From: Ardenticatenaceae bacterium
GTDB taxonomy: Bacteria; Chloroflexota; Anaerolineae; Promineifilales; Promineifilaceae
DNA length: 64,000 nt
Direction of reading: 5' to 3'
Assembly: GCA_020634455.1 (NCBI GenBank)
Contig: JACKBQ010000002.1
Location: forward strand, 856,606 to 920,605
Shown: positions 1-64,000 of the stretch, one piece after another
How positions within the stretch are numbered: position 1 is the first letter of the stretch
How the letters are laid out: the number at the start of each line of letters is the position of its first letter
Notes under the pieces: model-generated
What the model was told of the DNA's origin: nothing
Databases searched by the model: none
The model's input: only the letters and a program-made list of their open reading frames with translations
Program-made: the position numbers and the translations under genes

Positions 1-182
1 TCCACCCCCACGTTTTCCAAGATGTGCAGCGAGGCGTCGTGAATTTTTTGAATCTGCTCAGGCGCGAGAAAGTCGAACGGCCGTTGCGCATTCCTTACCG
101 TGCCAAAATCCATCTGCAACAGCGGCAGCGCCAATCGCTCGGCGCGTCGTTCGGCTCGTTTTGAGTTGCGTTGTCGGGTCAT
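1..182 (-). CDS. MttB-superfamily methyltransferase, N-terminal fragment (gene continues beyond window start)
   Basis: Reverse-strand ATG at 180-182. Translation MTRQRNSKRAERRAERLALPLLQMDFGTVRNAQRPFDFLAPEQIQKIHDASLHILENVGV runs off the window. An Arg-rich start followed by L..EQI..IH.ASL.ILE..G is typical of MttB-family N-termini. Too short to appear in the ORF track. Confidence 0.4.
   Translation of the reverse strand, partial: MTRQRNSKRAERRAERLALPLLQMDFGTVRNAQRPFDFLAPEQIQKIHDASLHILENVGV
77..84. repeat. ACGGCCGT highly iterated octamer palindrome (exemplar copy)
   Basis: Exact ACGGCCGT. Further hand-verified copies start at 280, 1063, 1135, 1543, 1609, 1795, 2231, 3423, 4021, 26845, 34137, 47511, 48844, 61542, 61868, 61979 and 62392. 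A manual scan gives roughly 110 copies in the window. Confidence 0.9.
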
Positions 183-189
183 AAGATTT

Positions 190-238
190 CACCCTCACCC
201 CAACCCTCTCCCTCAAGGGAGAGGGCTAGGGTGGGGGT
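190..238 (-). repeat. GGGAGAGGG-type hairpin element, short copy, abutting the stop codon of the S9 peptidase gene
   Basis: CACCCTCACCCCAACCCTCTCCCTCAAGGGAGAGGGCTAGGGTGGGGGT. CCCTCTCCC pairs with GGGAGAGGG, and the outer CACCCTCACCCC is partly complementary to CTAGGGTGGGGG. Same flanks as the longer copy at 35624-35706. Confidence 0.7.
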
Positions 239-2109
239 CAGTTCCTGGGCAGCAAATACCAATCTAAAAATGTTTCCATACGGCCGTAAAAATCCAAAAC
301 CGTCTTCTTCAACAAAAAGCCGTGCGCTTCCCCGGCGTACGTCTTGTACTCAAACGTCTTGCCCGCGTGGCGCAGCGCCTCCACCCACTCCTCCGACGCC
401 TGCGGCGGCACCACCGTGTCATCCAGCCCGTGGGCCACAAAAACCGGCTTCTGCACATTCTCCACCTGGGCGATGGGCGACGCCGCCACGTGTACCGGCC
501 GGTTCTCCGCCGGATGGCCCAGGAAAATCTCCGTGTACAGCCGCAAATCCCGGTTGCACTGTGCCCAGGAGCTGACGATGTTCGAGTCGCCGTACTTGTT
601 CACGCCGCAGGCAAACAAATACTCAGGATCGCGGCTGAGGCAGCAGGCTGTCATGTAGCCGCCGTAGCTGCTGCCAAAAATACCAATCCGCGCTGGATCG
701 ATGTCGCCAAACTGGTGCAGATAACGCGCTCCGTGCAGGCAATCTTGCGTGTCGCCCACGCCCCAATCGTTGTAGTTGGCGTGTTCAAACGTCACGCCGT
801 ATCCCGTGCTGCCGCGATAGTTGGGGGCCAGCCAGGTGTACCCCTTGGCCACAAAATATTGCGCCCAAATGTCCCAGCCAAAATTGTACAGCGACGACGG
901 CCCGCCGTGTGGATACAGCACCGCCGCTCCGTTGGATTTGGCCGGGCGGTACAAAAAAGCGGGAATCTCCAGCCCGTCAAAACTTTTGTAGCTCACCAGT
1001 TCGGGCATCACCAACGGATTGGCGGCGAGAGCGGGCAGGTTGGAGAAGGTGAGTTGCGTGGTACGGCCGTTCTCCACTTCCACCTTGTACAAATCCGCAG
1101 GCAAAATGGGGTCCTCGTACTCCACCGTCAAGAAACGGCCGTCGGGCGACCAGTTGGGCAAGGCATGAACCCCGTTGCCCGCCCGCAGCGTCCGCACGTC
1201 GCCCGATTGGGCATCCAGCAGCGCCAGCTCATACGCGCCCTGGCGATTGATGCTGCACGCAATCTGGCTCCCATCGGGCGACCAGGCAAGATCGGCAAAA
1301 TCGGCTCCCTCGTGCGACAGTTGGCGCAAGCCAGAACCATCCGGCCGCACCAGCCACACCTCGTTAAATTCCGGCCGCTGCGAGATGAAAGCAATCTGCT
1401 GCCCATCCGGCGACCAGATGCCGCCCCAGTTGCGCAGCTTGGGCGTGTGGGTCAGCTCGCGCACCTGCCCCGTTTCCAGTTCCACCAGCCAGATGTCTAG
1501 CCGGTTCATGTCGTCGAAGGGGCGGTGGGTGAAGAGGAGGAAACGGCCGTCTGGCGACGGTTTGGCATTCCAGGCATCCCCCGGCGTGTGTGCAATTTGG
1601 CGGGGCCAACGGCCGTCTCGGTCTGTGAGCAGCAGCTGCACCTGGTCATTGCGCTCCACGCTCACCACCAGCTGGTTGCTGTCTGGCAGCCACACCGGGG
1701 AAAAAGCAGAAGAGGCAAAACTGCTAATCTTTTGCGGCAAACCACCAGCGGCGGGAGCGATGTGGACGTGATCTTGCATGGTGAAGGCCAGGAAACGGCC
1801 GTCTGGCGACCACTGCGGCACTTCATCGGCCCAGTACGCCACCACCGCCCGCCGCGTGGAGATGCGGCGCGGCCAGCCGCCCGCGCTGGGCATCACGTAC
1901 ACGTCCGACTGGTCTTCGCGGTCCCAGATAAAGGCGATTTGCTCGCCGACGGGCGAAAGTTGGTGGTTGCGCACCCGGTTCACGGCGGGAATCAGGGCCG
2001 GGTCCCAGCCGTTTGGCGGCTTCAAGTCTGGTCGCTTCACCGCAGGCCAGCCCTGCCGCTCGTACTTCTCTTCAATCACCTGCCCATCGGGGTTTCGCAC
2101 CACACTCAT
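238..2109 (-). CDS. S9 family serine peptidase (prolyl oligopeptidase / acylaminoacyl-peptidase type) with N-terminal beta-propeller
   Basis: 623-aa ORF. Repeated propeller blades (WSPDGRFLAF, PSPDGRFLLF, WSPDGQQIAF, WSPDGSQIAC, WSPDGRFLTV). C-terminal alpha/beta hydrolase with the GSSYGGY nucleophile elbow, HGLDD and EAHGF. Confidence 0.9.
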   Translation of the reverse strand: MSVVRNPDGQVIEEKYERQGWPAVKRPDLKPPNGWDPALIPAVNRVRNHQLSPVGEQIAFIWDREDQSDVYVMPSAGGWPRRISTRRAVVAYWADEVPQWSPDGRFLAFTMQDHVHIAPAAGGLPQKISSFASSAFSPVWLPDSNQLVVSVERNDQVQLLLTDRDGRWPRQIAHTPGDAWNAKPSPDGRFLLFTHRPFDDMNRLDIWLVELETGQVRELTHTPKLRNWGGIWSPDGQQIAFISQRPEFNEVWLVRPDGSGLRQLSHEGADFADLAWSPDGSQIACSINRQGAYELALLDAQSGDVRTLRAGNGVHALPNWSPDGRFLTVEYEDPILPADLYKVEVENGRTTQLTFSNLPALAANPLVMPELVSYKSFDGLEIPAFLYRPAKSNGAAVLYPHGGPSSLYNFGWDIWAQYFVAKGYTWLAPNYRGSTGYGVTFEHANYNDWGVGDTQDCLHGARYLHQFGDIDPARIGIFGSSYGGYMTACCLSRDPEYLFACGVNKYGDSNIVSSWAQCNRDLRLYTEIFLGHPAENRPVHVAASPIAQVENVQKPVFVAHGLDDTVVPPQASEEWVEALRHAGKTFEYKTYAGEAHGFLLKKTVLDFYGRMETFLDWYLLPRN

Positions 2110-2310
2110 CTGTTTACTCCTTGCTGACTTTGTAACGTGTAAATTTCAAAAGTCTCGTATCTTTTGGAAAGGAACAGATTGTTGATAAGGCTTTTGAAAT
2201 CTTTTCATTCGGGAAAATTGTGGGAATTATACGGCCGTACCCCCACATCAGGTAGGAACTGACAAAAAACTACGGGGTAGGGCCAAAACTGGCTATACTT
2301 TGGACAAAAA

Positions 2311-2431: not shown

Positions 2432-4456
2432 ATGAAAATTCGCACCAACTTTCCCCACACCGTCACCATCCTGGAAAACGTCTGGATTCCCCTGGCCGAC
2501 GGCACCCGTCTGGCAGCCAAAATCTGGCTGCCAGACAGTGCCCACAACCAGCCCGTGCCCGCCCTGCTAGAATACATCCCCTACCGTAAAAGCGACTACA
2601 CCTCAGGCCGCGACGCCAAGCGACAGGCGTACTTTGCGGGCTACGGCTACGCCAACATCCGCGTGGACATGCGCGGCAGCGGCGACTCCGACGGCATCCT
2701 CTACGATGAGTACCTGCCGCAAGAGCAGGACGACGCACTGGAACTACTGGCCTGGATTGCCGCCCAGCCGTGGTGTGATGGCAACATCGGCATGCACGGC
2801 ATTTCTTGGGGCGGCTTCAACAGCCTGCAAGTGGCCGCCCGCCGCCCGCCTCAGCTCAAAGCAATCATCGCCATCGGCGCAACCGACGACCGCTACCACG
2901 ACGACGTGCATTACATGGGCGGCTGCCTGCTCACCTCGCAAATGCTGCCCTGGGCGTCGCTGATGTTTGCCTACAATCCGTCGCCGCCCGACCCGCGCTG
3001 GGTGGGCGACAAGTGGCGCGAGATGTGGCTGGAGCGATTGGAGCAATCGCCGCCGTTCATCGAAAAATGGTTGGAACACCAGACACGGGATGCATACTGG
3101 AAACATGGCTCCGTCCGCGAAAATTACGCCGACATCGAGATTCCGGTCTACATGGTCGGCGGCTGGGCCGACAGCTACAACAACTCGATTCTGCGTCTGA
3201 TGGCGGGGTTAAGTGGGCCGCGCAAGGCGCTCATCGGGCCGTGGTCGCACGCCTTCCCGGAGCAGTGCGGGTCGCCCGGCCCGGCGATTGGCTTTTTGCA
3301 GGAGAGTTTGCGCTGGTGGGATCATTGGCTGAAGGGGATTGACACGGGGATCATGGACGAGCCGATGATTCGCACCTGGCTGCAAGACGGGGTGCCGCCC
3401 GCGCCCAATTACAAGGAGAGAAACGGCCGTTGGCTCACCGAACCCTCCTGGCCATCCCCCAACATCCAGGAAAAACTCTACTTTTTGAACGAAAATCGGC
3501 TGGACAATGCCCCGCAGCCGACGCAAGAAATCAGCTTTGTCGGGCTGCAAAATCACGGGTTGGACGGCGGCGGCTGGGGCGGGCACGGCTCGCCTGGCGA
3601 ATCCCCCGGCGACCAGCGCCCCGCCGACGGCGAAAGCCTCACCTTTACCAGCCAGCCATTAGCCGAACCAATGAACCTGCTGGGCAACGCCGAAGTGCAG
3701 CTAAAGTTGAAAGTAGACCAGCCATTGGCTTTGGTGGCGGTGCGGTTGTGTGATGTGGACGAAGACGGCCGTTCCACCCTCGTCACCTGGGGCTTGCTCA
3801 ACCTCACTCATCGCCACAGCCACGAAAACCCGGAACCACTGGTGCTTGGAGAAGTCTACACCGTCACCGTGCCGCTCAACGTGATGGCCTACCAATTGCC
3901 TGCCGGGCACAGCTGGCGGGTTGGGATTTCGCCCACTTACCTGCGGCACGCCTGGCCGTCGCCAAAACCTGTGACGCTGACGCTGCTGTTGGGTGAGGGA
4001 TGCAAATTGGTGGTGCCGGAACGGCCGTTCCTCCCCAGCGACACCAATCTGCCCGACTTCCCGCCGGCCGAAATTGCCCCGCCAGAACCAATCGAAACGT
4101 TGCGGCACGAAATCCGTCGCCAGACCGTGACTCGCGAAGCCACGACGGGCACCACCACCTTCACCTTGCATCAAGATTCCGGCCGCATCCGCTACAAAAA
4201 TCACGGCCTGGAGCTGGACGATATCAGCACCCACACGCTCACTATCCGAGATGATGATCCGCTGTCGCTAGAGCAAACCGTGGCTTTTCGGTTGGAGTAT
4301 AAGCGTGGCGACTGGCAGGTGACGATGAAAACGGAGAGCAAGCTAACCGCCGACGCTGAATATTTTTATCTCTCGAACTTTTTGGAAGGGTATGAAGGCA
4401 GTACGCGGCTGTTTTGCAAAGCGTGGACAAAGCAAATTGCTCGTAATGGCCTTTAG
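2432..4456 (+). CDS. CocE/NonD family hydrolase (X-Pro dipeptidyl-peptidase S15 family)
   Basis: The ORF track starts at 2300, but its first 44 codons translate the spacer repeat. ATG 2432 (MKIRTNFPHTVTILENVWIPLADGTRL...) fits family N-termini. GISWGG nucleophile motif, LEYIPYRK, and a long C-terminal beta-sandwich region. Confidence 0.85.
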   Translation: MKIRTNFPHTVTILENVWIPLADGTRLAAKIWLPDSAHNQPVPALLEYIPYRKSDYTSGRDAKRQAYFAGYGYANIRVDMRGSGDSDGILYDEYLPQEQDDALELLAWIAAQPWCDGNIGMHGISWGGFNSLQVAARRPPQLKAIIAIGATDDRYHDDVHYMGGCLLTSQMLPWASLMFAYNPSPPDPRWVGDKWREMWLERLEQSPPFIEKWLEHQTRDAYWKHGSVRENYADIEIPVYMVGGWADSYNNSILRLMAGLSGPRKALIGPWSHAFPEQCGSPGPAIGFLQESLRWWDHWLKGIDTGIMDEPMIRTWLQDGVPPAPNYKERNGRWLTEPSWPSPNIQEKLYFLNENRLDNAPQPTQEISFVGLQNHGLDGGGWGGHGSPGESPGDQRPADGESLTFTSQPLAEPMNLLGNAEVQLKLKVDQPLALVAVRLCDVDEDGRSTLVTWGLLNLTHRHSHENPEPLVLGEVYTVTVPLNVMAYQLPAGHSWRVGISPTYLRHAWPSPKPVTLTLLLGEGCKLVVPERPFLPSDTNLPDFPPAEIAPPEPIETLRHEIRRQTVTREATTGTTTFTLHQDSGRIRYKNHGLELDDISTHTLTIRDDDPLSLEQTVAFRLEYKRGDWQVTMKTESKLTADAEYFYLSNFLEGYEGSTRLFCKAWTKQIARNGL

Positions 4457-4581: not shown

Positions 4582-5532
4582 ATGATCGTTGCGAACCGAA
4601 TTGATAGTTATGTGCCAAGATGGCGATGCCAATTTGTGATGTTTTCTATTTTGGCCTTGCTGGTTGTGGGTGGCTGTGCGCCCTCGGTTGAGCCAGCCCT
4701 GCCGGTGTCAACGGAGGTCGTGGCTACAGCAACAACGGAGATTGTGATTACAGCAACGGCCGTTCTCCCCACTCAGCCGCCTCCCACACCCACTTTATCG
4801 CCCACCATCACCGCAACAAATCTACCGCCAACCGTTACCCCGCCGCCCACTGCCACGCCCATACCCCCGGCTACCGCAATACCCTCTGCCATCTCCATGC
4901 CAGAGCCATCTCCGACGTCAATGGTGGTTGCTTTTGGCGGTGTACAACTGCTGTGGGACGGCCGTATTGCCGACCAAATTGTGCCTATGGAAGAAACCTG
5001 GGGGGAGATGCGCTACACTGTCTTCAAATTTGCGCCAGAAGGGTTATGCCGGGAAGTTGGTTGCATAGAAATTTATGATGTAGCAGCCTACGAAGCAGAG
5101 AAACCTGGGTTTCCACTGCCGCCGCTGGGTGCTGGCATCGTGCTCAGTATCCCAAGCCAAAACATCAGCTTTGCCAATGGCAGCGGTGCGCGACGTTTGC
5201 GTATTTATGGGCAGGACGGCTTTTTTGCTAACAACGAAGCGCTACTTTATGAGTTTGCCGGGTATACGGCAGACGGCCGTTTTTACATCCTGGCCACCAT
5301 TCCCCTAGACTCGTCTATTTTGCTCAGTACCTATGATCCCGCTCAGAATAGCAATCCTAACGCCATCCCCGTGCCCGCCGAACTGCCCAGCGACCCAATA
5401 GAGCTGGGGGCAATCATATTTGACTATAACCGGGAGGTGGAGCCGCATCTCGCCGAACAACCAGCGAATCAATTCAGCCCCAATTTGGATCTGCTGGATG
5501 CGCTCATTGCATCGCTAGTTGTAGAACTATAG
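4582..5532 (+). CDS. hypothetical lipoprotein with Thr/Pro-rich linker
   Basis: AGGAGG 8 nt upstream of ATG 4582. Hydrophobic N-terminus ending in the lipobox-like LVVGGC. About 45-aa T/P-rich linker. About 200-aa C-terminal domain without motifs I recognise. Confidence 0.65.
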   Translation: MIVANRIDSYVPRWRCQFVMFSILALLVVGGCAPSVEPALPVSTEVVATATTEIVITATAVLPTQPPPTPTLSPTITATNLPPTVTPPPTATPIPPATAIPSAISMPEPSPTSMVVAFGGVQLLWDGRIADQIVPMEETWGEMRYTVFKFAPEGLCREVGCIEIYDVAAYEAEKPGFPLPPLGAGIVLSIPSQNISFANGSGARRLRIYGQDGFFANNEALLYEFAGYTADGRFYILATIPLDSSILLSTYDPAQNSNPNAIPVPAELPSDPIELGAIIFDYNREVEPHLAEQPANQFSPNLDLLDALIASLVVEL

Positions 5533-5701
5533 GTGGCAATTTATGAACCGAATAATCACCCTTCCCCGAATTTATCTCTTTTTTGCCCTGGCAATTTTCC
5601 AGCCCGCTGGTTATGCGCGTGGAGGCGGATCAGCTAACTCAGGTGACCAATTTAATAACGGATGCAGTCGTTGTGGATGAGAACGGCCGTATCTGGTTGG
5701 T

Positions 5702-6286
5702 TTGGGTAAAATGGGGAGCATGGGTAAGAAGATTCGTTTGTTTATTGCGATTGATTTGCCGGAAGCGGTGAAGGATGTGCTGGCGGAAACGGCCGTTCGC
5801 CTCTCGCAAAACGTACCAAACCGGGCGATCCGCTGGGTCAGTCATGACCAGATGCACCTGACACTTCGTTTTTTGGGGGATACGGCCGTCTCCCAACTCC
5901 CTGATTTGCAACAAGAATTAGCCAAACTGGCCACGCAATACCAACCGTTTCAGCTGTGGCTGCGCGGGGCGGGGGCGTTTCCCAACCCCAAACGGCCGCG
6001 CGTGGTGTGGGTGGGTTTGGCGGGCGATCTGGCTCCGCTGCAAAAGATGCAGGCTACATTGGAAGATCGGGTGGTGGCGTTGGGCTGGGCGCGTGAGAAA
6101 CGGCCGTTTAGCCCTCATCTAACTTTGGGACGGGTAAAGGATGCAGGGCAGGCGCGAGGCCTAAATTGGGATGTGAAATTGGTGGAGGTGGGGTTTGGGG
6201 TAACGGCCGTTCAGCTGGTGCAGAGTGAATTACGGTCGTCTGGTGCAGTGTACACTGTTTTGCAGGAAGTTCCGCTCAATCCATAG
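5702..6286 (+). CDS. thpR: RNA 2',3'-cyclic phosphodiesterase (2H phosphoesterase, LigT/ThpR)
   Basis: Two H-x-T-x motifs (HLTLRFLG and HLTLGRV) at the spacing expected for 2H phosphoesterases. Start is ambiguous (TTG 5702, ATG 5711 or ATG 5720). Confidence 0.85.
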   Translation: MGKMGSMGKKIRLFIAIDLPEAVKDVLAETAVRLSQNVPNRAIRWVSHDQMHLTLRFLGDTAVSQLPDLQQELAKLATQYQPFQLWLRGAGAFPNPKRPRVVWVGLAGDLAPLQKMQATLEDRVVALGWAREKRPFSPHLTLGRVKDAGQARGLNWDVKLVEVGFGVTAVQLVQSELRSSGAVYTVLQEVPLNP

Positions 6287-7136: not shown

Positions 7137-8900
7137 GTGAGTGAATTTGACGTTAATAGATCACAGCAGACTGACAAAAGTACCACTGGTCGCTGGGTCT
7201 TATCCCACCTTTCACACCACAAGTTGCTCATTATTGGCATGTTTGTTGGCGCTTTTGGCAATGCGGCGCTGGCGGCTGTGGTTCCCGTGCTTATTGGCCG
7301 TGCGTTTGATGCGGCGCTGGCTTCGCCAGCCGATTTGCGCACCATTGGCTTGATGGCGTTGGGGGTGATTGGCAGCCAGTCGGTGCGGGCTGTGTTGCAG
7401 TTGGGGCGTAACTTTTCTAGCGCGGTGATGGGCGAGCGGCTGGAGCGGGACATGCGCGAGGAGCTTTATATCAGTTTGCTAGGCAAGAGCACCGCCTTCC
7501 ACGATTCGCAGCCGGTTGGCGATACCATGGCGCGGGCCACCAATGATGTCCATGAAGTCAATCTGCTCATGAATCCGGGGGTGAATTTAGTAGCTGGTTC
7601 GGCCAATTTTATGCTTATGCCGCTGCTGGTGGCTCCCAGTTATCACCCACAGTTGGCGGCTGCGCCGTTGTTTTTTATGGTCACTTACATTTTGGCAGTG
7701 GTGCGGTATTTGCGGGTGCTGCAAGGGGTGGCGGATCGGGTGCGGCGGGCGTTTGGAACGTTGAACGGCCGTCTCGCCGAAGCAATTGACGGGATTGAGC
7801 TGGTAAAAAGTACGGCGCAGGAAGTACAGGAAATTGGCTTGTTCAACGACAACGCAACCGGGTATCGGGATGCGGCCGTGGAGCAGGGCAAAATTGAAGC
7901 CCGCTTTTTGCCGCTGCTGCTGCTGGGCATTACCCAGGGGCTGGGTTTTATGCACGCGCTCTACCTGTTCAACCTGGGGCAGATTGATGTGGGGGATGTG
8001 GTTGCCTACATGGGGCTGCTGGCGCTGTTTGGCTTTCCTACGTTTATTTCGCTCATGGCTTATTCGCGGGTGTCGTTAGGTCTGGCTGGGGCACGGCGTA
8101 TTTTGGAGCTGATGAATGCGGAGACGCTGCTGGACGAAAATGCAACGGGTCACCAGGCGGAAATTGAAGGTGCGGTGACGTTTGAGAATGTTGCCTTTGG
8201 CTATGCAGATGGCTCGCCTATACTGCAAAATATTAGTTTTGCCATTGTGCCAGGGCAGACGGTGGCCATTGTGGGGCAGACGGGGGCGGGCAAAAGCACA
8301 TTGGCCAAGCTGATTAACCGGACATACGATGTGGGAAACGGCCGTCTTCTGGTAGACGGCATGGATGTGCGAGAGTGGAACCTGGCGGCGCTGCGGCGGC
8401 AAATTTCCATTATTGAACAAGACATCTTTTTGTTTTCGCGTACCGTCGGGGAAAATATTGCGTTTGGTTGCCCTGGCGCTACACAGGCGATGATCGAGGA
8501 TGCGGCCAAAGCGGCCCAGGCCCACGACTTTATCCTGAACTTTAAGGATGGTTATGAGACGGTGATTGGCGAGCGCGGTGTGACGCTTTCTGGTGGGCAG
8601 CGGCAGCGGCTGGCGCTGGCGCGGGCGTTCCTCACCCGGCCGCGCATCCTCATTTTGGATGATTCTACCAGCGCGGTGGACAGCGCCACGGAAGATCAGA
8701 TTCAGCAGGCCATTGTGCAGGCGGCGGCCCGCCAAACCACCATTTTAATCACCCATCGGCTATCGCAGATTCGCTGGGCAGACAAGGTGGTGGTGATGCG
8801 CAAGGGGCGGATGGAGGCGGTGGGCAGCCACGAGGAGCTGATGGCCAGTTCGGTGGCGTATCGCCGCATTTTTGAGCAGTACGAGGCGATTGAAGAGTAG
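7137..8900 (+). CDS. ABC exporter, fused permease/ATPase half-transporter (MsbA/MdlB type)
   Basis: N-terminal multi-TM exporter domain. NBD with Walker [10 protein letters not shown], signature LSGGQRQR, Walker [10 protein letters not shown] and H-loop ITHRL. Confidence 0.92.
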
Positions 8901-8996: not shown

Positions 8997-9224
8997 ATGA
9001 AAGCACTTGTGTATTATTGCCGCTGGCATGAGGCCAGTTTGAGATTGCGGGGGCGGGATAGTACGGCCGTTTGGGGCCATCTTGTCTACAACACAGAAAC
9101 GCCAGACGAAACGATGCAAGCATTTCGCTTTGAGCTGAAAACGTGGCGGCTTACGCTGCAAACCGAAGACGGCGAGGAAACGATTCAGCTAGATGAGATG
9201 GGGGTTGTGCAGTCTGAAAATTAG
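8997..9224 (+). CDS. hypothetical small protein (weak call)
   Basis: ATG 8997 within track ORF 8961-9224 (MKALVYYCRWHEASLRL...). No motif recognised. Its 3' end overlaps a P-loop gene remnant on the other strand. Confidence 0.3.
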   Translation: MKALVYYCRWHEASLRLRGRDSTAVWGHLVYNTETPDETMQAFRFELKTWRLTLQTEDGEETIQLDEMGVVQSEN

Positions 9225-11690: not shown

Positions 11691-11813
11691 GCTTGCTTTT
11701 GGTTCGCAACAGTTGTTGCCAGAGCCAAAACGATATGCGATTACAGACTCGATTGTTTCGCGAGTGTAAAGGATTAGGGGTTGTGTCAGAGGAACCGTTG
11801 TCAGAACGGCCGT

Positions 11814-19489: not shown

Positions 19490-20830
<1,341 letters not shown>

Positions 20831-43502: not shown

Positions 43503-43503
43503 T

Positions 43504-46299: not shown

Positions 46300-46386
46300 G
46301 GTCGTATCCTATTTACTTGATGAATTTACTTATGAACGGCCGTTTCTCTTCCCGTACTGTTCCCAATGTTGGAAACAATCTGCCGG

Positions 46387-57021: not shown

Positions 57022-57864
57022 TTAGAGCTGTTGCAGAATACCACGCAGCAGGACGGTAAGCTTGGGTACAATTTGCTTGCCCATTTCCATCACCTCTTCA
57101 TGGTCCAGCACGGTGCCCGGTTTAGGGTCGGGCACGGCCATGTTAGTGATGGAAGAGATACCCATGATGCGCAAACCGGCATGGCGAGCGACGACAACGG
57201 TGGGCACGGTGGACATGCCCACTGCGTCTGCACCGACGGTACGCAGGAAGCGCAGTTCGGCGGGGGTCTCAAAGCTGGGACCGGCGACGTAGGCGTAGGT
57301 GCCTTCTTGCAGGGTGAAGTTGTTGGATACGGCCGTTTCCTTCGCCAACTTCCGTAATGCCACATCATATGTGCCAATCATGTCCATAAAACGGGGGCCA
57401 ATGCGGTCATCGTTGGGGCCGCGCAGCGGATTTAGCCCCGCCATACCCAAAAAGTTGATGTGGTCGGTTATGAGCATCAAGTCACCGGGGCTGAAGCTGG
57501 CGTTGATGCCGCCCGCCGCGTTGGTGACAATAAGCATTTTGATGCCTAGCGCGTTCATCACCCGGACAGGCAGGGTGATTTGCTCCATGTTGTACCCTTC
57601 GTAGTAGTGTGCCCGCCCTTGCTGCACCAGCACCGTTTTGCCCTCTAGGGTGCCGATGACCAACCTGCCGCTGTGTCCCACCACAGTAGATTGGGGCCAG
57701 CCAGGAATTTCTTCGTAAGGAATGATGTCTGGATTTTGAATGCTGTTGGCTAACTCGCTGAGGCCAGACCCAAGCACCAGCCCGATGGTAGGTTGGTAAT
57801 TGGTGCGTTGGCGAATGGCTTGAACGGCCGTTTCTACTTGCTGGGCAGTTTCGGTGGTAGTCAT
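57022..57864 (-). CDS. punA: purine nucleoside phosphorylase (trimeric PunA/MTAP-type)
   Basis: GLVLGSGL, VVGHSGRLVIG, GRAHYYEGY, GPSFETPAE and GADAVGMSTVP motifs. Confidence 0.92.
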   Translation of the reverse strand: MTTTETAQQVETAVQAIRQRTNYQPTIGLVLGSGLSELANSIQNPDIIPYEEIPGWPQSTVVGHSGRLVIGTLEGKTVLVQQGRAHYYEGYNMEQITLPVRVMNALGIKMLIVTNAAGGINASFSPGDLMLITDHINFLGMAGLNPLRGPNDDRIGPRFMDMIGTYDVALRKLAKETAVSNNFTLQEGTYAYVAGPSFETPAELRFLRTVGADAVGMSTVPTVVVARHAGLRIMGISSITNMAVPDPKPGTVLDHEEVMEMGKQIVPKLTVLLRGILQQL

Positions 57865-57938: not shown

Positions 57939-58871
57939 TTAATTGGCAGGTTCGGCTTCTTCCAACTGCGTATAAATTTGGGTTGTCGAAATATTGGCGT
58001 GACCCAGCAATTTTTGAACTTCTTGCAAATCGGAGCCGCTGTTGAGCTTATGGGCGGCAAAGCTGTGGCGTAGGGTGTGCGGGGTGACCGCCACACTGAG
58101 ATCTGCTTCTTTGGCATACGCTTTGATAATGAGCCACAAGCCCTGTCGTGTGAGTTGCTGGCCTCGGTGGTTCAGGAACATAGCCGTTTCATCTTTGTCT
58201 TTTACCAGAAACGGCCGTCCTTCCTCCATGTAATTCCCCAAAATATCTTTCGTGTATTGATCAAATGGGAGTTCGCGAACTTGGTCGTCTTTACCCGGGC
58301 AATATAGCACCTTATTTTCTAAATCAACATCTGCTAGCTGCAAGGAAACAACCTCTGTTACCCGCATGCCAGTAGAATAAAGCATATTTAGCAATGCCAT
58401 ATCTCTCAGATTTTTAGGAGATTTTTTATTTGCTGGGGCTTGTAGTAATCGATCGACTTCTTCTGACGAAAGCGTTTTCGGTAAGCGTTTCTTCACTTTA
58501 GGTGAATCAATAGCGGTTGTTGGATTTTCTTCAATGATTTCATTGGCGCACAGATAATTGAAAAAAGATTTTACGGCCGCTACTTTTCTAGCCACGGAAG
58601 ATGAGGCGTAAGGCTGTTCCTTCATGTACTCGACATACCCATTGATTTTATCAGCATCGATGGATTGCCAACCAGAAGCATTCTTAATGCTGTTGTTATC
58701 CTGCAAGTAGGATACAAATTGCCCTAGATCATTTTTGTAGGCAGCAATTGTATTATTAGAATAATTGTATTCTTGTTGAAGGAACTTTAGGAAGGCGAGC
58801 AGCTGTTCTTCCATCGCCACACACTCCTTGCTATGCTCAGATATTTTGGAGGGCTTTTGTTCGTATAGCAA
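57939..58871 (-). CDS. xerD: tyrosine site-specific recombinase, XerD/XerC-like
   Basis: N-terminal SAM-like domain (LLAFLKFLQQEYNYSNNTIAAYKNDL). Catalytic region with ...TGMRVTE..., HTLRHSFAAHKLNSG and LLGHANISTTQIYTQ. The true start is probably Met20 (ATG at 58814). Confidence 0.85.
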   Translation of the reverse strand: MLYEQKPSKISEHSKECVAMEEQLLAFLKFLQQEYNYSNNTIAAYKNDLGQFVSYLQDNNSIKNASGWQSIDADKINGYVEYMKEQPYASSSVARKVAAVKSFFNYLCANEIIEENPTTAIDSPKVKKRLPKTLSSEEVDRLLQAPANKKSPKNLRDMALLNMLYSTGMRVTEVVSLQLADVDLENKVLYCPGKDDQVRELPFDQYTKDILGNYMEEGRPFLVKDKDETAMFLNHRGQQLTRQGLWLIIKAYAKEADLSVAVTPHTLRHSFAAHKLNSGSDLQEVQKLLGHANISTTQIYTQLEEAEPAN

Positions 58872-59291: not shown

Positions 59292-59810
59292 ATGAAGAGA
59301 GATTCCAAAGATCAAAAAGACGATCTGAAGTTTGAAGCTTTATTTAAGCAGGGGAGTGGGCTGCTGCATCAGGGCAAAGTAAATGATGCCGTTGCTGCGC
59401 TTCAGGAAGCGCACGCTCTTGACCCCACCCATTTTGATGCAGCGCTTAACTTAAGCGGTGCGTACATTTTAACAAAGAAATTTAAGCAGTCTGTGAAATT
59501 ATTGGAGCAACTGTGCGAGCAGTCGCCCAACAATGTAATGGTTTGGACTAACTTGGGCGCAGCTTATCTGGGGAATCCTATTTTGGCGCGTGACGAGGAA
59601 CAGTTACAAGCAATCGCTGCATTTAAGCAGGCATTGGCGATAGATCCTGCTGCGCCAAATGTAGCTTATAACATTGGCCTGATTTATCGTGATCGTCGCG
59701 AGTTTGATTTGGCGATTAGTTGGTTTGAGCGGGCGGTGCGGGCTAACCCAAACGATAAAGATGCAAGAAATTTAATTAAAAAATTGCGCGAAATGAACGG
59801 CCGTACCTGA
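59292..59810 (+). CDS. tetratricopeptide repeat protein
   Basis: Four or five TPR-like units (e.g. AVAALQEAHALDP, AIAAFKQALAIDP, AISWFERAVRANP). ATG 59292 within the track ORF from TTG 59280. Confidence 0.75.
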   Translation: MKRDSKDQKDDLKFEALFKQGSGLLHQGKVNDAVAALQEAHALDPTHFDAALNLSGAYILTKKFKQSVKLLEQLCEQSPNNVMVWTNLGAAYLGNPILARDEEQLQAIAAFKQALAIDPAAPNVAYNIGLIYRDRREFDLAISWFERAVRANPNDKDARNLIKKLREMNGRT

Positions 59811-59930: not shown

Positions 59931-61328
59931 ATGAACATTATGTCTCCCACTTTTTCCCCTTTTGTTTCCCGTATGAAGGCAGAAGCTTTGCCACAAATCT
60001 TTATAGATACCTTTGCTTATTATTATGAGCAGCTAAAAACTGGCCAAACCGGGCACATCCCTGAGTCGGAAATTAAGCCTGCGACCAATATTCCCGATGC
60101 CGAACAGTTCCCAGAATATTTACAGGAAATTGGTAAGCATTCTTTGGCGAAAACGGCCGTAATCAAACTCAACGGTGGCCTGGGTACCAGCATGGGGCTG
60201 GAAAAAGCCAAATCTTTGTTGCCTGTTAAAGAAGGCTTGACCTTTTTAGACATCATCGCCCGGCAGGCGCAACTTGCCAACGTACCCTTACTGTTGATGA
60301 ATAGCTTTTCTACTGAAGACGATTCGCTCGATTTGCTAGAACAATATCCCGACCTGAACCACGATTTGCCCCACAGCTTTTTGCAGCATAAAGAGCCAAA
60401 AATCAGACAAGACAACCTTGCCCCGGTAGAATGGTCCGAAAATCCCGAACTTGAGTGGTGCCCACCAGGGCACGGCGACATCTACGCTGCACTCATGACC
60501 AGCGGCACTCTGGAAGCGCTGCTAGAAAAAGGGTATGAATACGCTTTTGTTTCTAATGCAGATAACTTAGGCGCAGTGGTGGATTTGGCCATTTTGGGCT
60601 ACTTTGTAGATAACGAGGTGCCGTTTATGATGGAAGTGGCTGATCGCACCGAAATGGACAAGAAGGGGGGGCATTTGGCCCAACGGCACGACGGTCAGCT
60701 CATTTTGCGTGAATCTGCGCAGTGTCCAACGGAAGATACGGCCGCTTTTCAAGACATTCAGCGCTACAAATATTTCAACACTAACAACCTTTGGTTCCAC
60801 TTGCCCACGCTACATCGGCAGATGCGTGCCCACGACAACCGGCTTGGCTTGCCCATGATACGCAACAGCAAAACGGTGGACCCGCGCGACCCAGATTCCA
60901 CGCCAGTGTATCAATTGGAGACGGCGATGGGCTCGGCCATTGCCGTGTTTAGCGGGGCGCAGGCCATTCGCGTGCCACGCAGCCGCTTTGCTCCCGTTAA
61001 GACCACCGATGACCTGTTGGCAGTGCGTTCCGATGCCTACACGCTCACCGATGATTTTCGCATTGTGGCTGCGAGCGCACGCAAGACCCAAAAGCTCAAC
61101 GTTGAGCTGGACGGCCGTTTCTACAAATACGTCAGCGATCTGGATGAACATTTTCCACACGGTGCGCCCTCAATGACAGAAGGCCAGAGCCTGATAATCA
61201 AAGGCGAATTCTGCTTTGGCAAGGATGTAAAATGCGTAGGCGACGTGCATTTGCGTAACGAAACTGACGTTCTAGTTATCATCCCCGATGGTACTGTGTT
61301 GACTGGCCTGCGTCATTATACTGCCTAG
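59931..61328 (+). CDS. UTP-glucose-1-phosphate uridylyltransferase, UDPGP (eukaryote-type) family
   Basis: Signature KLNGGLGTSMGLEKAKSLLPV, then LLMNSFSTEDD, PPGHGD and the NADNLGA block. ATG 59931 follows AAGGAAAG (the track ORF starts at TTG 59898). Confidence 0.85.
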   Translation: MNIMSPTFSPFVSRMKAEALPQIFIDTFAYYYEQLKTGQTGHIPESEIKPATNIPDAEQFPEYLQEIGKHSLAKTAVIKLNGGLGTSMGLEKAKSLLPVKEGLTFLDIIARQAQLANVPLLLMNSFSTEDDSLDLLEQYPDLNHDLPHSFLQHKEPKIRQDNLAPVEWSENPELEWCPPGHGDIYAALMTSGTLEALLEKGYEYAFVSNADNLGAVVDLAILGYFVDNEVPFMMEVADRTEMDKKGGHLAQRHDGQLILRESAQCPTEDTAAFQDIQRYKYFNTNNLWFHLPTLHRQMRAHDNRLGLPMIRNSKTVDPRDPDSTPVYQLETAMGSAIAVFSGAQAIRVPRSRFAPVKTTDDLLAVRSDAYTLTDDFRIVAASARKTQKLNVELDGRFYKYVSDLDEHFPHGAPSMTEGQSLIIKGEFCFGKDVKCVGDVHLRNETDVLVIIPDGTVLTGLRHYTA

Positions 61329-61448: not shown

Positions 61449-61612
61449 ATTTTCACAGGAGCCTTTTTTCATTGTAGAGCAAGCGGAATGCATGGAGGTT
61501 ATAAAAATCTCTGCATTCTCCGCGATCTCGGCCGTAAAAAAACGGCCGTCCTCACCAATTCTTTGGCAAAAATTCGCGGTGCTCTCTGGCTGGATGTGAT
61601 ACAATTGTTTGC

Positions 61613-63001
61613 ATGAGCCAATCTCTTGTGGTTATTGGTGGTGGGTTAGCTGGAACAGAAGCAGCGTGGCAACTAGCCGAACAGGGCATACAGGTAAAAC
61701 TGTATGAAATGCGCCCAAAGCGGCCAACGCCGGCTCACGTTACCAATCATCTTGCCGAACTGGTGTGCAGTAATTCCCTCGGCTCCATGCTACCGCATAA
61801 AGCGCCTGGCTTACTAAAGGCGGAACTGCGTGGCTTGGGTTCGATGATTTTGGCTTGCGCGGTAGAAACGGCCGTTCCCGCTGGGACCTCGCTCGCCGTA
61901 GACCGTGATAAATTTGCCGAACGGGTCACCGCAAAAATAGAAGCCCATCCCAATATTGAACTGATTCGTGAAGAACTGACGGCCGTACCCATCGGCCCCA
62001 CCATCATCGCTAGCGGCCCACTCACCTCGTCCGCACTCACCGCCAGTATTAGCCAGCTCTCCGGGGAAGATCACCTCTACTTTTACGATGCTGTCTCTCC
62101 CATTGTGGATCATGACACCATTGATTTAAGCATCGCTTTCCGCCAATCCCGCTACGACGACGGCCAGGATGAAGGGGATTACATCAACTGCCCTATGACC
62201 AAGGATGAGTACGATCGTTTCTGCGATGCGCTGTTGGCAGCTGAAACAATCACCCTCAAGCATTTCGAACAGGAAGATCCCCATTTTTTTGAAGGCTGTA
62301 TGCCGGTAGAAGTAATGGCTCAGCGAGGGCGCAAAGCGTTGGCCTTTGGCCCGATGCGGCCTGTTGGGTTGATTGATCCAAGGAGTGGGAAACGGCCGTA
62401 TGCCGTCGTGCAATTGCGCCAAGATAATCTCATCGGCTCCCTCTACAACATTGTCGGCTTCCAGACCAACTTGAAGTGGGGTGAACAAAAGCGCGTGCTG
62501 CGTCTCATCCCCGGCCTGGAAAAAGCCGAATTTCTGCGCTATGGCATGATGCACCGTAACACCTACATCAACGCCCCTCATCTGCTTCAACCCACCTTGC
62601 AATACCGTGGCCGCGCCGACCTTTTCTTTGCCGGGCAAATTATTGGCGTAGAAGGGTACATGGGCAATGCCGCCACTGGCCTGGTGGCCGGACTCAACGC
62701 CGCACGGCTACTCAAGGGCAAAATGCCCGTCATCTTCCCCACCAACACCATGCTGGGAGCGTTGTGCCACTACGTTACCCACGCCAGCATGAAAGATTTT
62801 CAGCCGATGAAGGCGAATTTTGGTTTGTTTGAGCAGCCTCAACACCAAATGCCCAAAGCAGAGCGATACCGCTGGTACAGCGACCGTGCGCTCACCGCCA
62901 TGCGAAGATTTGCCCGAAACAATGATATTTTGTACGATCGCACCATTGCCGAAGCCAATTTGGCCGAGGAAGTCGTTGTGTTGCCAGGAGAAACCAGTTG
63001 A
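61613..63001 (+). CDS. trmFO: methylenetetrahydrofolate-tRNA-(uracil54-C5)-methyltransferase TrmFO
   Basis: [22 protein letters not shown] motif, [23 protein letters not shown]. Family-typical length of 462 aa. Confidence 0.93.
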
Positions 63002-63039
63002 CCGAGAATTTGAAGCTGTGGCTGCGCCAACAATCGGCT

Positions 63040-64000
63040 ATGCTGTGTGCCGTCACCCTGAACCGGGCACCCAACTTGCTGGTTGATGAAGACGATCTGA
63101 TAGAGTTTCTGTCAGTATTGGTGAGCAGCGTTGGCTCTTTGCCAGAATTACAGCTTGCTTCCGTGCAATCCTGGGCGCTCATAGCTATTGGGCATGATGC
63201 CCCGGCGGCGTATGACTGGATGGTTTTGCTGCGTGTGTTGAAGGAGCAAATCGGCCGTAGCCTGGTAGAACAACTCCCCGCAGAAGATGCACTCACGGCC
63301 TGGCGACTGATTGATGATGTACTCATCTACGCTATCATCGAAGCCACTCAGCTAGCATCCGACATGCAGCGGTCTGAGCTGCTAAACCACATGTCTCAGC
63401 TCCGCAGCCAACAAGAAAAATTCAAGGAAAGTAAAACCAAGTTCATCGCCGTGGCCGCCCATGAGCTAAAAACCCCACTCACCATTTTGGAAGGCTACAC
63501 CAATATTCTCAAGGCGGAGACGCAAAACGAACCACAACTGAATATTTACCTGGAAGGGTTAGGCAATGGTTTCCGTCGTATGCACGAAATTATTGGCGAT
63601 ATGCTGGATGTTTCATTGCTAGATTTGCGCACGGTGGAGCTAAAATACCAGGAAATCAACCTGGAAAAAACGGTGCTTTTGGTGGCGGATAGTGTAGACC
63701 GTTATTACATGACGCGCCGGGTTGATCTGAAAATTGTGCCATTTGAATTTGATAGCAGCACCTTTGGCGACCCGGAAAAGCTGAAAAAAGCGCTCACCAA
63801 AATCCTCATGAACGGGCTGAAGTACACGCCGGACGGGGGCGAGGTGGTGGTTACTGGCAGCCTGGTGCGGCAGGATGAAGTGACTGATGAGTTAGCAGGT
63901 TTTGTGGATATTCAGATCATGGATACGGGTATTGGCATTGATACGGAAAACCTGGAATCTATTTTTGAGAAGTTTGGCAGTATTGCAGATGCCAGTCTGC
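63040..64000 (+). CDS. sensor histidine kinase (3' end outside window)
   Basis: Open frame to the window end. H-box KFIAVAAHELKTPLT, N-box KILMNGLKYTP, G1 MDTGIGI. Start uncertain (TTG 62998 overlapping the trmFO stop, or ATG 63040). Confidence 0.8.
   Translation, partial: MLCAVTLNRAPNLLVDEDDLIEFLSVLVSSVGSLPELQLASVQSWALIAIGHDAPAAYDWMVLLRVLKEQIGRSLVEQLPAEDALTAWRLIDDVLIYAIIEATQLASDMQRSELLNHMSQLRSQQEKFKESKTKFIAVAAHELKTPLTILEGYTNILKAETQNEPQLNIYLEGLGNGFRRMHEIIGDMLDVSLLDLRTVELKYQEINLEKTVLLVADSVDRYYMTRRVDLKIVPFEFDSSTFGDPEKLKKALTKILMNGLKYTPDGGEVVVTGSLVRQDEVTDELAGFVDIQIMDTGIGIDTENLESIFEKFGSIADASL

Follow-up and report, generated by a model that had tools for sequence, protein, structure and literature searches.

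The stretch analysed here, called the window throughout, is 64 kb of DNA (guanine-plus-cytosine, GC, content 53.5 %) from contig JACKBQ010000002.1 of assembly GCA_020634455.1, which represents an Ardenticatenaceae bacterium that is uncultured and filamentous. For this stretch we list 61 genes on the basis of public gene calls on identical contigs and a codon-model caller of open reading frames (ORFs). Dispersed through these genes and the spacers between them are exactly 110 exact copies of one octamer, ACGGCCGT, which amounts to 1,719 per Mb or about one copy per 600 bases, roughly 100 times what is expected by chance, and which invites comparison with HIP1, the highly iterated palindrome (HIP) of cyanobacteria. 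Genes on both strands hold 102 of the copies (93 %) and the other 8 are intergenic. Read in the frames of their genes, 51 copies spell T-A-V, 38 spell [NDYH]-G-R and 13 spell x-R-P. Spacing averages 572 bp (coefficient of variation 0.82) and locally fits an exponential distribution (Kolmogorov-Smirnov p = 0.35), with counts per 2 kb slightly more even than Poisson (variance 2.18, mean 3.44).

The copies of ACGGCCGT are listed below by exact match, with the gene that carries each one, the strand of that gene, and the phase and peptide read from the 61-gene list (aa, amino acids); the strand of the copy itself is entered as '.' throughout.

77..84, MTTB-like gene (-), phase 2, QRPF
280..287, S9 peptidase (-), phase 1, YGRM
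1063..1070, S9 peptidase (-), phase 1, NGRT
1135..1142, S9 peptidase (-), phase 1, DGRF
1543..1550, S9 peptidase (-), phase 1, DGRF
1609..1616, S9 peptidase (-), phase 1, DGRW
1795..1802, S9 peptidase (-), phase 1, DGRF
2231..2238, intergenic
3423..3430, S15 peptidase (+), phase 1, NGRW
3765..3772, S15 peptidase (+), phase 1, DGRS
4021..4028, S15 peptidase (+), phase 2, ERPF
4756..4763, hypothetical 316 aa (+), TAV
4958..4965, hypothetical 316 aa (+), DGRI
5273..5280, hypothetical 316 aa (+), DGRF
5683..5690, intergenic, 37 nt upstream of the LigT/ThpR gene
5789..5796, LigT/ThpR (+), TAV
5882..5889, LigT/ThpR (+), TAV; conserved in L013, L017
6100..6107, LigT/ThpR (+), phase 2, KRPF; conserved in L013, L017
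6203..6210, LigT/ThpR (+), TAV
7765..7772, ABC transporter (+), NGRL
8338..8345, ABC transporter (+), NGRL
9063..9070, hypothetical 75 aa (+), TAV; conserved in L013, L017
9631..9638, RelA/SpoT (-), TAV
9857..9864, RelA/SpoT (-), phase 2, LRPL
10603..10610, RelA/SpoT (-), TAV
11508..11515, RelA/SpoT (-), NGRQ
11565..11572, RelA/SpoT (-), NGRS
11806..11813, intergenic, abuts the YtxH stop codon
12881..12888, hypothetical 91 aa (-), TAV
13302..13309, MnmA (-), NGRS
13392..13399, MnmA (-), NGRP
13983..13990, MnmA (-), YGRT
14136..14143, MnmA (-), DGRS
14956..14963, hypothetical 240 aa (-), TAV
16362..16369, class V aminotransferase (-), DGRR
16680..16687, class V aminotransferase (-), YGRV
16741..16748, class V aminotransferase (-), TAV
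16947..16954, class V aminotransferase (-), HGRS
17266..17273, GAF-PAS histidine kinase (-), TAV
18178..18185, GAF-PAS histidine kinase (-), TAV
19002..19009, GAF-PAS histidine kinase (-), DGRI
19087..19094, GAF-PAS histidine kinase (-), TAV
19748..19755, enolase (+), TAV (AVTAVNE); conserved in L013
20621..20628, enolase (+), TAV (GWTAVTSH); conserved in L013
22501..22508, ORF 260 aa (-), TAV
23198..23205, ORF 309 aa (-), TAV
24158..24165, ORF 185 aa (-), NGRL
24994..25001, ORF 177 aa (-), TAV
25595..25602, ORF 416 aa (+), YGRQ
26355..26362, ORF 416 aa (+), phase 2, LRPY
26845..26852, intergenic, 31 nt upstream of CorA
26898..26905, CorA (+), YGRV
28153..28160, S41/tricorn peptidase (-), TAV
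28912..28919, S41/tricorn peptidase (-), TAV
29172..29179, S41/tricorn peptidase (-), DGRV
30525..30532, InhA-like protease (-), phase 2, RRPF
32372..32379, InhA-like protease (-), TAV
33117..33124, P450 (-), NGRL
33208..33215, P450 (-), TAV
33388..33395, P450 (-), TAV
33606..33613, P450 (-), DGRP
34137..34144, intergenic
34602..34609, RHH_8 protein (+), YGRS
34847..34854, inositol monophosphatase (-), NGRI
35226..35233, inositol monophosphatase (-), TAV
35577..35584, inositol monophosphatase (-), TAV
36462..36469, PtsI (-), phase 2, ERPL
36662..36669, PtsI (-), TAV
37370..37377, PtsI (-), TAV
38043..38050, E2 acyltransferase (-), TAV
38112..38119, E2 acyltransferase (-), TAV
38312..38319, E2 acyltransferase (-), DGRI
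38405..38412, E2 acyltransferase (-), NGRS
38622..38629, E2 acyltransferase (-), TAV
40795..40802, E1 alpha (-), TAV
40951..40958, E1 alpha (-), TAV
41332..41339, class II aldolase (-), TAV
41506..41513, class II aldolase (-), TAV
42889..42896, DRL/SAF-domain protein (-), TAV
43187..43194, phosphotransferase system (PTS) IIA gutA (-), phase 2, ERPL
44829..44836, PTS EII-GUT (-), TAV
45822..45829, GutM (-), TAV
45857..45864, GutM (-), YGRL
46336..46343, intergenic (between HPr and SorC)
47511..47518, intergenic
48625..48632, ribosomal protein S18 (+), YGRI
48844..48851, intergenic
49504..49511, SurA_N protein (+), TAV
49897..49904, SurA_N protein (+), TAV
50076..50083, SurA_N protein (+), phase 2, ERPL
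50588..50595, SpoU methylase (+), NGRR
50775..50782, SpoU methylase (+), phase 2, ERPF
51291..51298, hypothetical 440 aa (+), TAV
52128..52135, hypothetical 440 aa (+), TAV
52649..52656, hypothetical 186 aa (-), TAV
52802..52809, hypothetical 186 aa (-), TAV
54407..54414, SucC (+), TAV
55770..55777, RsmD-like (+), NGRF
55849..55856, RsmD-like (+), phase 2, ERPS
56353..56360, hypothetical 261 aa (-), TAV
57329..57336, PNP/UDP phosphorylase (-), TAV
57824..57831, PNP/UDP phosphorylase (-), TAV
58211..58218, XerC-like recombinase (-), phase 2, GRPF
59797..59804, TPR protein (+), NGRT
60153..60160, UDPGP (+), TAV
61111..61118, UDPGP (+), DGRF
61542..61549, doubtful 42-codon ORF call, effectively spacer
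61868..61875, TrmFO/GidA (+), TAV
61979..61986, TrmFO/GidA (+), TAV
62392..62399, TrmFO/GidA (+), phase 2, KRPY

Over-representation of the exact word

Dinucleotide-preserving shuffles of the window give 1.16 copies of ACGGCCGT on average and 4 at most, so that the observed count divided by the expected one (obs/exp) is 95. Markov models of orders 0 to 3 expect 1.3, 1.2, 2.0 and 4.1 copies; the much higher expectations at orders 4 to 6 (15, 59 and 98) arise because these models are trained on the sub-words of ACGGCCGT itself. Shuffling synonymous codons within genes, which preserves every protein and the codon usage of each gene, yields 10.5±2.9 copies (largest 17) against 101 observed in the shuffled genes, and a codon-order shuffle expects 1.7. 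ACGGCCGT is the top 8-mer both in the window and in every relative scored as positive below; the ten 8-mers that rank after it in the window are all shifted versions of it, and the runner-up among palindromic 8-mers has 6 copies. Pooled chromosomal DNA of the positive clade (223 kb) holds 385 copies against 3.9 expected (obs/exp 98) under an order-3 model trained with all CGGCCG sites masked. Moreover, twelve same-species contigs, taken from independent metagenome assemblies and one metagenome-assembled genome (MAG) at NCBI, match the window at every site, and the array is therefore no assembly artefact. Proteins of the window were found in identical form on this type of source, namely NCBI MAG GCA_020432515.1 and many ENA metagenome contigs.

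The repeating unit is 8 bp with a soft extension of one base on either side, the extended form AACGGCCGTT accounting for 38 of the 110 copies. C at -1 and G at +1 (CACGGCCGTG) occur twice each in the window species, and C at -1 reaches 11–15 % in relatives and in metagenome contigs of the clade, so avoidance of the CACGGCCGTG 10-mer is species-specific and possibly reflects a restriction system with a longer site. We rejected a longer repeat unit, seeing that the most frequent 12-mer around ACGGCCGT has 6 copies in the window and that the 27–46 nt families returned by a repeat finder are only 65–80 % alike, their likeness consisting of ACGGCCGT plus a G-rich flank composition. A hairpin or cruciform was likewise rejected: complementarity between the two flanks equals the expectation from column composition, and 68-nt stretches centred on sites fold at -16.6 kcal/mol, compared with -16.9 for chimeric flanks and -16.4 for random windows.

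Much of this had been foreseen in the original prediction, which was made by manual scan and put the number of copies at about 110, the very figure of the exact count. All 18 start positions that it listed by hand are correct, the shuffles return between 1 and 10 copies with no unrelated 8-mer coming near, and the peptides it cited are all present (AVTAVNE and GWTAVTSH in enolase, SPDGRF three times in the S9 peptidase, EKRPF in ThpR). It placed copies in all three reading frames of genes on both strands, as the 51/38/13 phases confirm, and it described the flank bias just given. Six copies were assigned to spacers, of which those at 2231, 26845, 34137, 47511 and 48844 are indeed intergenic, whereas the one at 61542 lies within a doubtful ORF call of 42 codons. 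One-off variants, two of which (at 15691 and 15531) had been named accurately, total 39 against 110 exact copies. Its central claim, that the word is actively maintained and no product of codon or composition bias, is strongly supported by the shuffles and by the TAV encoding and the orthologue comparison that follow. Beyond it go the strand-symmetric G/C skew of the flanks, the distribution across the clade and the dense copies on mobile elements.

A DNA-level force acting across the clade

Our data show that a sequence-specific force at the level of DNA creates and preserves exact copies of ACGGCCGT, overriding synonymous choice and often the choice of amino acids as well. ACGGCCGT spells every one of the 51 TAV tripeptides encoded in the window, where ACG accounts for 29 % of the codons for Thr and GCC for 47 % of those for Ala, and these 51 compare with 8.0 expected from amino-acid frequencies. 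For [NDYH]GR the corresponding figures are 39 observed and 10.9 expected, with 38 of the 39 spelled by the word. In alignment columns shared with orthologues that lack it, the window has 42 TAV against 12 (2 of them spelled by ACGGCCGT) and 38 xGR against 11 (none so spelled), while positive relatives have 35 TAV, all but one of which (34) the word encodes; TAV and [NDYH]GR are about 3.5 times commoner in the window than in word-less orthologues. Since the excess is encoded by the word, the force must act on DNA and be strong enough to alter proteins. This points to a DNA-level origin of the over-representation, rather than to codon or protein bias.

The same force removes near-misses at the central GGCC. 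Position 1 or 8 is the deviating one in 29 of the 39 one-off variants in the window, and the transitions ATGGCCGT and ACGGCCAT (C2-to-T, G7-to-A) make up 7 of the 9 inner ones; their dominance would be expected under methylation of CpG cytosines and hints, if weakly, at such methylation. Across the 223 kb of the positive clade, obs/exp for one-off variants is 3.5 at the outer positions, 1.18 at 2/7, 0.37 at 3/6 and 0.50 at 4/5; word-less Anaerolineae (232 kb) give 0.90, 0.66, 1.15 and 1.45. From this spectrum it follows that central near-misses are removed and that the CGGCCG core is itself enriched.

Relatives were collected by scanning GTDB species representatives with the RelA/SpoT protein of the window, the nearest being MAGs labelled Candidatus (Ca.) Promineifilaceae, Ardenticatenaceae or Chloroflexota; NCBI puts Promineifilaceae in class Ardenticatenia. 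The loci sampled cover 4–22 kb each. The nine nearest, scored as positive where ACGGCCGT is the top 8-mer, are as follows.

L013, positive, RelA identity 86 %, 15.8 ACGGCCGT per 10 kb
L014, positive, RelA identity 65 %, GC 44.7 %, 10.2 per 10 kb
L015, positive, 16.4 per 10 kb
L016, positive, 8.1 per 10 kb
L017, positive, RelA identity 64 %, 16.6 per 10 kb
L020, positive, RelA identity 57 %, 10.8 per 10 kb
L018, negative, 0 copies in 5.3 kb
L019, negative, 1 copy in 4.4 kb
L021, negative, 2 copies in 15 kb

In all 71 loci with RelA identity of 46 % or less the word is absent or at background. A neighbour-joining tree of RelA, built from this single gene and including some short contigs, unites the window and L013–L021 in one clade, with positive L020 basal and with negative L018 and the pair L019 and L021 nested inside, a topology that fits ancestral presence of ACGGCCGT followed by at least two losses. 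Eleven more metagenome contigs of chromosomal character (GC 0.50–0.62) carry the word at the same density, and it is the top 8-mer of the positive clade from 45 to 62 % GC. Thus, the force acts across a bacterial class whatever the GC content.

Orthologous copies persist even where synonymous sites are saturated. Orthologues were aligned codon by codon via tblastn and the sequence opposite each window site was scored. L013 (nucleotide identity 0.81, third positions 0.59) has the exact word at 21 of 28 window sites, and it recurs at 9/19 sites in L014, 3/9 in L015, 2/6 in L016, 6/12 in L017 and 5/17 in L020, five lineages in which third positions are saturated (identity 0.40–0.46). These rates of 29–75 % compare with 0.22 and 0.06–0.08 for frame-matched control 8-mers from the same genes; among sites whose amino acids are unchanged, 33 of 33 keep the word, against 0.13–0.31 of controls. 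Mismatches at orthologous sites are bimodal, at 0 or at least 3, and negative lineages show 3–7 mismatches opposite window sites in ungapped alignment. Hence, in the alignment that the original prediction had proposed, sites are seen to arise by substitution and not by insertion.

Single-nucleotide polymorphisms (SNPs) between strains, n=118 for the window versus L002, L006, L010 and L011, include none inside ACGGCCGT (1.5 expected) and 3 within 20 nt of it (8.9±2.8 expected). This depletion hints at local protection, but the SNPs are clustered and the uniform null is crude, and we do not rely on it.

The G/C footprint, mobile elements and other features of the window

Around chromosomal copies of ACGGCCGT there is also a G/C footprint, short and symmetric about the dyad. 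Read along either strand, G is abundant and C scarce on the 5' side of the word, and symmetry makes the 3' side rich in C; the GC skew, +0.44 over 1–10 nt, falls to +0.25 at 11–20 and about +0.13 at 21–40, and reaches baseline by about 40 nt. In 770 half-sites G outweighs C by 0.26–0.29 at -3/-4, and this margin shrinks smoothly, with a 3-nt ripple, to roughly 0.1 at -20 and roughly 0.05 at -30. Runs of G are 3 to 4 times enriched in the flanks, and beyond these runs no discrete motif emerges there. The skew is strongest at codon position 3 (sense strand: G 0.49 against 0.29 in the background, C 0.13 against 0.35) and weak at position 2, A and T are unchanged, and the antisense side is the mirror image. 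A swap of C for G at synonymous positions, mirrored in this way, is a DNA-level effect that is independent of gene orientation and of any amino-acid preference. The swap at codon position 3 with unchanged A and T also led us to reject cytosine deamination as its cause.

The footprint goes with the exact word. Every positive relative shows it too (0.23–0.43 at 3–10 nt), as do metagenome contigs of chromosomal character (0.2–0.4), and it amounts to 0.29 at exact copies, 0.09 at outer one-off variants, 0.01 at CGGCCG with both outer bases wrong and 0.00 at TGGCCA, GCGC and CCGG. Opposite window sites it measures 0.20 in relatives that keep the site, 0.16 in members of the positive clade that lack it and 0.09 in negative lineages, compared with 0.27–0.32 for the window's own flanks at the sites in question. 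With 0.09 in lineages devoid of the site and about zero at other palindromes, a pre-existing sequence context is mostly rejected as its origin. Nor do HIPs in general have the skew: three cyanobacterial plasmids (pANL, pCC7120alpha and pSYSM) offer 169 HIP1 sites, and at these it is about zero from 3 to 40 nt, only the ±1 bases being biased.

A scan of IMG/VR with a three-copy pattern returned 28 loci, in most of which ACGGCCGT is the top 8-mer, at 12–41 per 10 kb. The densest (L096, L097, L100, L102, L105, L115, L117, L121 and L122; examples are IMGVR_UViG_3300033417_000002 and _3300033072_001034) have 25–41 per 10 kb and so exceed the chromosome. Among the genes on the IMG/VR loci are ParA, RadC, an Ant anti-repressor, a lytic transglycosylase, an FtsK/SpoIIIE-like ATPase, a head-morphogenesis-like protein and a large protein containing an M23 peptidase, partial evidence on which these contigs look like phages or plasmids. 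CGGCCG occurs on them 34–54 times per 10 kb, the full word makes up 0.42–0.57 of these sites versus 0.62–0.69 in chromosomes, and A at -1 is less strongly preferred than in chromosomes. That mobile elements are enriched in the word instead of avoiding it argues against ACGGCCGT being a restriction target.

About half of the matches in the three-copy scan of metagenomes are short contigs made of degenerate 12-nt tandem arrays of TGTACACGGCCG (L172, L171, L156, L142, L143, L159, L197 and some 50 other short contigs, in the series Ga0056108, Ga0056133–135, Ga0209259 and Ga0209459). With about 120 copies of the unit in L159, such arrays give 60–180 ACGGCCGT per 10 kb. The TGTACACGGCCG arrays resemble satellite DNA and have nothing to do with the word dispersed through the genomes.

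Among other sequences in the window, CCAAAAT/ATTTTGG occurs 59 times on both strands (for example at 878, 16046, 36867 and 41555), but was rejected as a second iterated element: 34 of the copies read ATT-TTG-G (Ile-Leu-Ala/Glu/Gly) in a single frame, obs/exp is below 2 under an order-3 model and relatives have 3–5 per 10 kb, all of which marks it as a codon-pair effect of ATT with TTG (Ile-Leu). An A-rich repeat of 28 nt, TTTAAAAAAGCGGAACACAGAGCGACAC, has four copies that are 68–79 % alike (2302-2329, 23836-23863, 38935-38962 and 43735-43762), three of them intergenic and one inside the PTS EIIBC gene. Short G/T-rich tandem-like repeats of GTTGGC/GGTGT units lie at 14772-14886 within the gene for the 240-aa hypothetical protein (14316-15038, -). 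A same-strand run at 35713-47346 (-) comprises PtsI, 2-oxoacid dehydrogenase E1/E2, class II aldolase, a complete glucitol-type PTS (EIIA, EIIBC, EIIC, GutM), HPr and a regulator of SorC type. For a Chloroflexota MAG, such a sugar-PTS module is noteworthy. Rfam has no matches in the window.

Mechanism, rival explanations and known systems

What kind of force could do this? The account we prefer, and to which we would give about an even chance of being right, sees ACGGCCGT as a HIP-type palindrome native to a clade of Chloroflexota (NCBI class Ardenticatenia, including Ca. Promineifilaceae) and a methyltransferase-linked drive as its likely engine. A dimer-symmetric enzyme system would recognise the CGGCCG core together with the outer A/T, most likely through an orphan DNA methyltransferase that works together with site-directed nicking or mismatch correction. 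Where a mismatch arises within or close to the word, repair may then favour the word, as in very-short-patch repair or in Elhai's HIP model, and a short stretch leading away from the site would each time be processed anew on each strand. Repeated many times, such re-processing could leave a footprint that is G-rich on the 5' side and C-rich on the 3' side, decays over some 30 nt and falls mainly on synonymous positions; mobile elements residing in these cells would acquire the word too.

Selection on each redundant site is too weak to account for 51 of 51 TAV and for the loss of near-misses, which makes a drive likelier than classical selection. Two drives are known, biased mismatch correction linked to methylation (Elhai's HIP1 model, PMC4390886) and biased uptake with recombination, as for uptake signal sequences (USS) and DNA uptake sequences (DUS). 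We favour the former because the word is a palindrome with a 6-bp core of Type II kind, because recognition appears two-layered (an enriched core with soft outer bases), and because the smooth footprint of about 30 nt resembles variable-length tracts that start from the site on each strand.

Several observations weigh against this drive. No cognate enzyme was found, neither the methyltransferase for CGGCCG nor the Vsr-type nuclease that the original prediction had suggested looking for: Pfam finds no DNA methyltransferase or Vsr gene in the window (its PF03602 protein, 55433–56005, is of the RsmD, rRNA methyltransferase type), and about 0.4 Mb of DNA scanned from positive loci yielded neither motifs of 5-methylcytosine methyltransferases or Vsr nor a nicking enzyme. 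The one DNA methyltransferase that turned up, an SPPY-type N4/N6 DNA methyltransferase of the very large family PF01555 on a word-dense element (L122:8317-9839, -), had to be rejected. Downstream of it lies an ORF of about 235 aa which in close homologues is a PF15515 endonuclease of the MvaI/BcnI family, and since homologues of the methyltransferase (L244:10001-11517, L246:10001-11537) sit beside MvaI/BcnI endonucleases on contigs with zero copies of ACGGCCGT, the L122 enzyme belongs to an MvaI/BcnI-type system and is not cognate. The word-dense IMG/VR contigs have a flank skew of about zero, so that word and skew are separable and the latter is no automatic companion of the former. Window sites shared with relatives have a skew of 0.27 and unshared ones 0.29–0.32, hence no clear dependence on the age of a site. 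Variants at positions 2/7 are not in excess in the pooled clade DNA, and copies per kb are fewer in non-coding (1.06) than in coding DNA (1.81). Finally, we know of no polymerase bias in bacterial short-patch synthesis that yields a pure C/G swap.

As for the module that L122 carries, restriction-modification systems of this CCWGG/CCSGG type are very widespread, at 75–84 % identity across phyla.

Of the competing accounts, two have next to no probability in our judgement. That the pattern is a side effect of composition, of codon use, of preferred dipeptides or of faulty assembly might be read into the 59–98 copies of the order 5–6 Markov models and into the common use of all four codons ACG, GCC, GGC and CGT, but those models merely memorise the word, the synonymous shuffle leaves a tenfold gap, eight copies lie in spacers, and relatives at 45 % and 62 % GC both carry ACGGCCGT when outgroups of equal GC do not; synonymous shuffle, agreement among assemblies and clade comparison between them refute it. 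Just as improbable are copies that represent remnants or cores of a dispersed mobile mini-element, akin to repetitive extragenic palindromes (REP) or miniature inverted-repeat transposable elements (MITE), or footprints of transposon excision. The weak families of the repeat finder might suggest as much, yet they show neither dyad symmetry beyond composition nor a gain in hairpin stability, and ungapped alignment to site-less orthologues speaks for substitution; a REP/MITE-type repeat, being an imperfect hairpin of at least 20 bp and mostly intergenic, does not agree with a unit of 8–10 bp that is 93 % genic.

Two further accounts are less improbable. It is conceivable, albeit unlikely, that ACGGCCGT is a self-DNA tag for natural transformation, similar to USS/DUS and as proposed for HIP1, in which case a receptor would prefer DNA with the word, uptake and recombination among relatives would spread its copies, and the G-tract and C-tract flanks would adapt the shape of DNA to uptake. 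The AT-rich flanks of the Haemophilus USS probably act in this way, and USS are themselves composed of a core plus a compositional flank. Under such a drive, too, near-misses would be lost, positions conserved, proteins distorted and the word shared across a whole clade. Against it stand the lack of competence genes seen in the window, the fact that known uptake sequences are not palindromes, and phage- and plasmid-like contigs that are denser in the word, which is not predicted for phages, and lack the skew. A shade less probable again, to our thinking, is an array of binding sites for a dimeric chromosomal protein (a nucleoid organiser, topoisomerase, segregation or repair-loading factor), with purifying selection keeping the word and a G/C-asymmetric footprint of about 50–60 bp. 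The flank pattern is dyad-symmetric, tied to the exact word and conserved in relatives, the spread is more even than Poisson, and for HIP1 both selection and a role in chromosome architecture have been put forward (Xu et al., PMC5861425). Yet selection would, as argued above, be too weak at each redundant site, the skew decays smoothly with no footprint edge, and mobile elements hold the word without its flanks.

More tentatively, and with somewhat less than even confidence, we suggest that HIP-type palindromes arose independently outside cyanobacteria and that each copy is a recurrent site of dimer-symmetric, strand-specific processing of which the footprint is the trace. If so, the footprint records a maintenance mechanism that HIP1 never revealed, and positive and negative sister lineages along with word-dense mobile elements provide a natural experiment for finding the enzymes. 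HIP1 has passed for a peculiarity of cyanobacteria; another word of this sort in an unrelated phylum would make the phenomenon general, and comparing two phyla would allow testing which genes track the word in both, with lineages that have or lack it being usable for phylogenetic profiling. A skew bound to the exact word also points to a process at each site that is strand-specific and of short range. Activated sludge harbours these filamentous Chloroflexota in abundance, and ACGGCCGT is a very specific marker for binning contigs of the clade and for assigning phages and plasmids to hosts. The distorted protein composition (excess TAV, xGR and RP) matters for models of sequence evolution.

In the literature searched, which did not extend to REBASE or subscription journals, ACGGCCGT turned up only in primers and unrelated binding sites, nothing ties it or CGGCCG to iterated palindromes or to Chloroflexi, and we found no prior description. 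Among known systems, very-short-patch repair in E. coli is alike in that the target of a methyltransferase gains copies from near-misses and in that the repair tract is short. Bhagwat and McClelland are said to have reported, in 1992, oligonucleotide skews at the Dcm/Vsr site CCWGG from this repair. The E. coli effect is few-fold, against about 100-fold for ACGGCCGT, and depletes only the T-containing variant; we know of no flank skew described for it. Chi, like ACGGCCGT, is an over-represented 'self' octamer in genes, but it is asymmetric, co-oriented with replication and only about 5-fold over-represented. The G-rich 5' flanks of ACGGCCGT are oriented as Chi would need to be in order to act on an end made at the word, yet they hold only runs of G and no discrete motif. 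USS of Pasteurellaceae and DUS of Neisseriaceae occur about once per kb, family-wide and within genes, distort peptides and are spread by molecular drive, all in parallel with the intragenic, clade-shared and peptide-distorting ACGGCCGT; USS, too, consist of a core with compositional flanks. Uptake sequences are, however, asymmetric 9–12-mers, where ACGGCCGT is palindromic, and for them competence has been shown, with ComP as the receptor for DUS.

Closest to our findings are the HIPs themselves. HIP1 came to light in the mid-1990s, and what it does and how it originated are still matters of debate, the readings being a repair signal, chromosome architecture and an uptake tag. The word, GCGATCGC, was reportedly described in cyanobacteria by Robinson in 1995. 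In HIP1-poor cyanobacteria, alternate HIPs (GCsGC, rCCGGy and TCGATCGA) show, as does ACGGCCGT, that a different GC-rich palindrome can fill the HIP role in one lineage, but they are all cyanobacterial, mostly shorter or degenerate, and each is linked by Elhai to a matching methyltransferase (Elhai 2015, PMC4390886). HIP1 reaches 300–2,700 per Mb at obs/exp of 55–228 (PMC4390886, Table 2), ranges that include the approximately 1,700 per Mb and obs/exp of about 95–100 of ACGGCCGT. Its one-off deviations sit at positions 1 and 8 with the centre protected (Elhai 2015, PMC4390886, section 2.6), and conservation of its orthologous sites led to selection being inferred and an architectural role being suggested (Xu, Lawrence & Durand 2018, PMC5861425); two preprints hold that HIP1 promotes natural transformation in a way that depends on methylation. 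The parallel with HIP1 drawn in the original prediction thus holds for density, frames and spacers, losses within the clade, variant spectrum and conservation of orthologous sites, the latter beyond codon and amino-acid controls. Both words are, moreover, GC-rich palindromes of 8 bp in which CG occupies positions 2–3 and 6–7 about a palindromic centre of 4 bp, both have a 6-bp core of the kind that Type II enzymes recognise, and in both a palindromic ±1 extension is common. They differ in that ACGGCCGT is built on CGGCCG/GGCC and HIP1 on CGATCG/GATC, so that, with no internal adenine, a Dam-type partner is impossible for the former, and in the strand-symmetric flank skew of about 30 nt that HIP1 sites on plasmids do not have. 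As the top over-represented word, with a HIP's density, non-codon origin, variant spectrum, site conservation and clade distribution with exceptions, ACGGCCGT lacks a cyanobacterial host, residing instead in Chloroflexota (class Ardenticatenia, Ca. Promineifilaceae), and for this reason we file it as HIP-like in behaviour rather than as HIP1.

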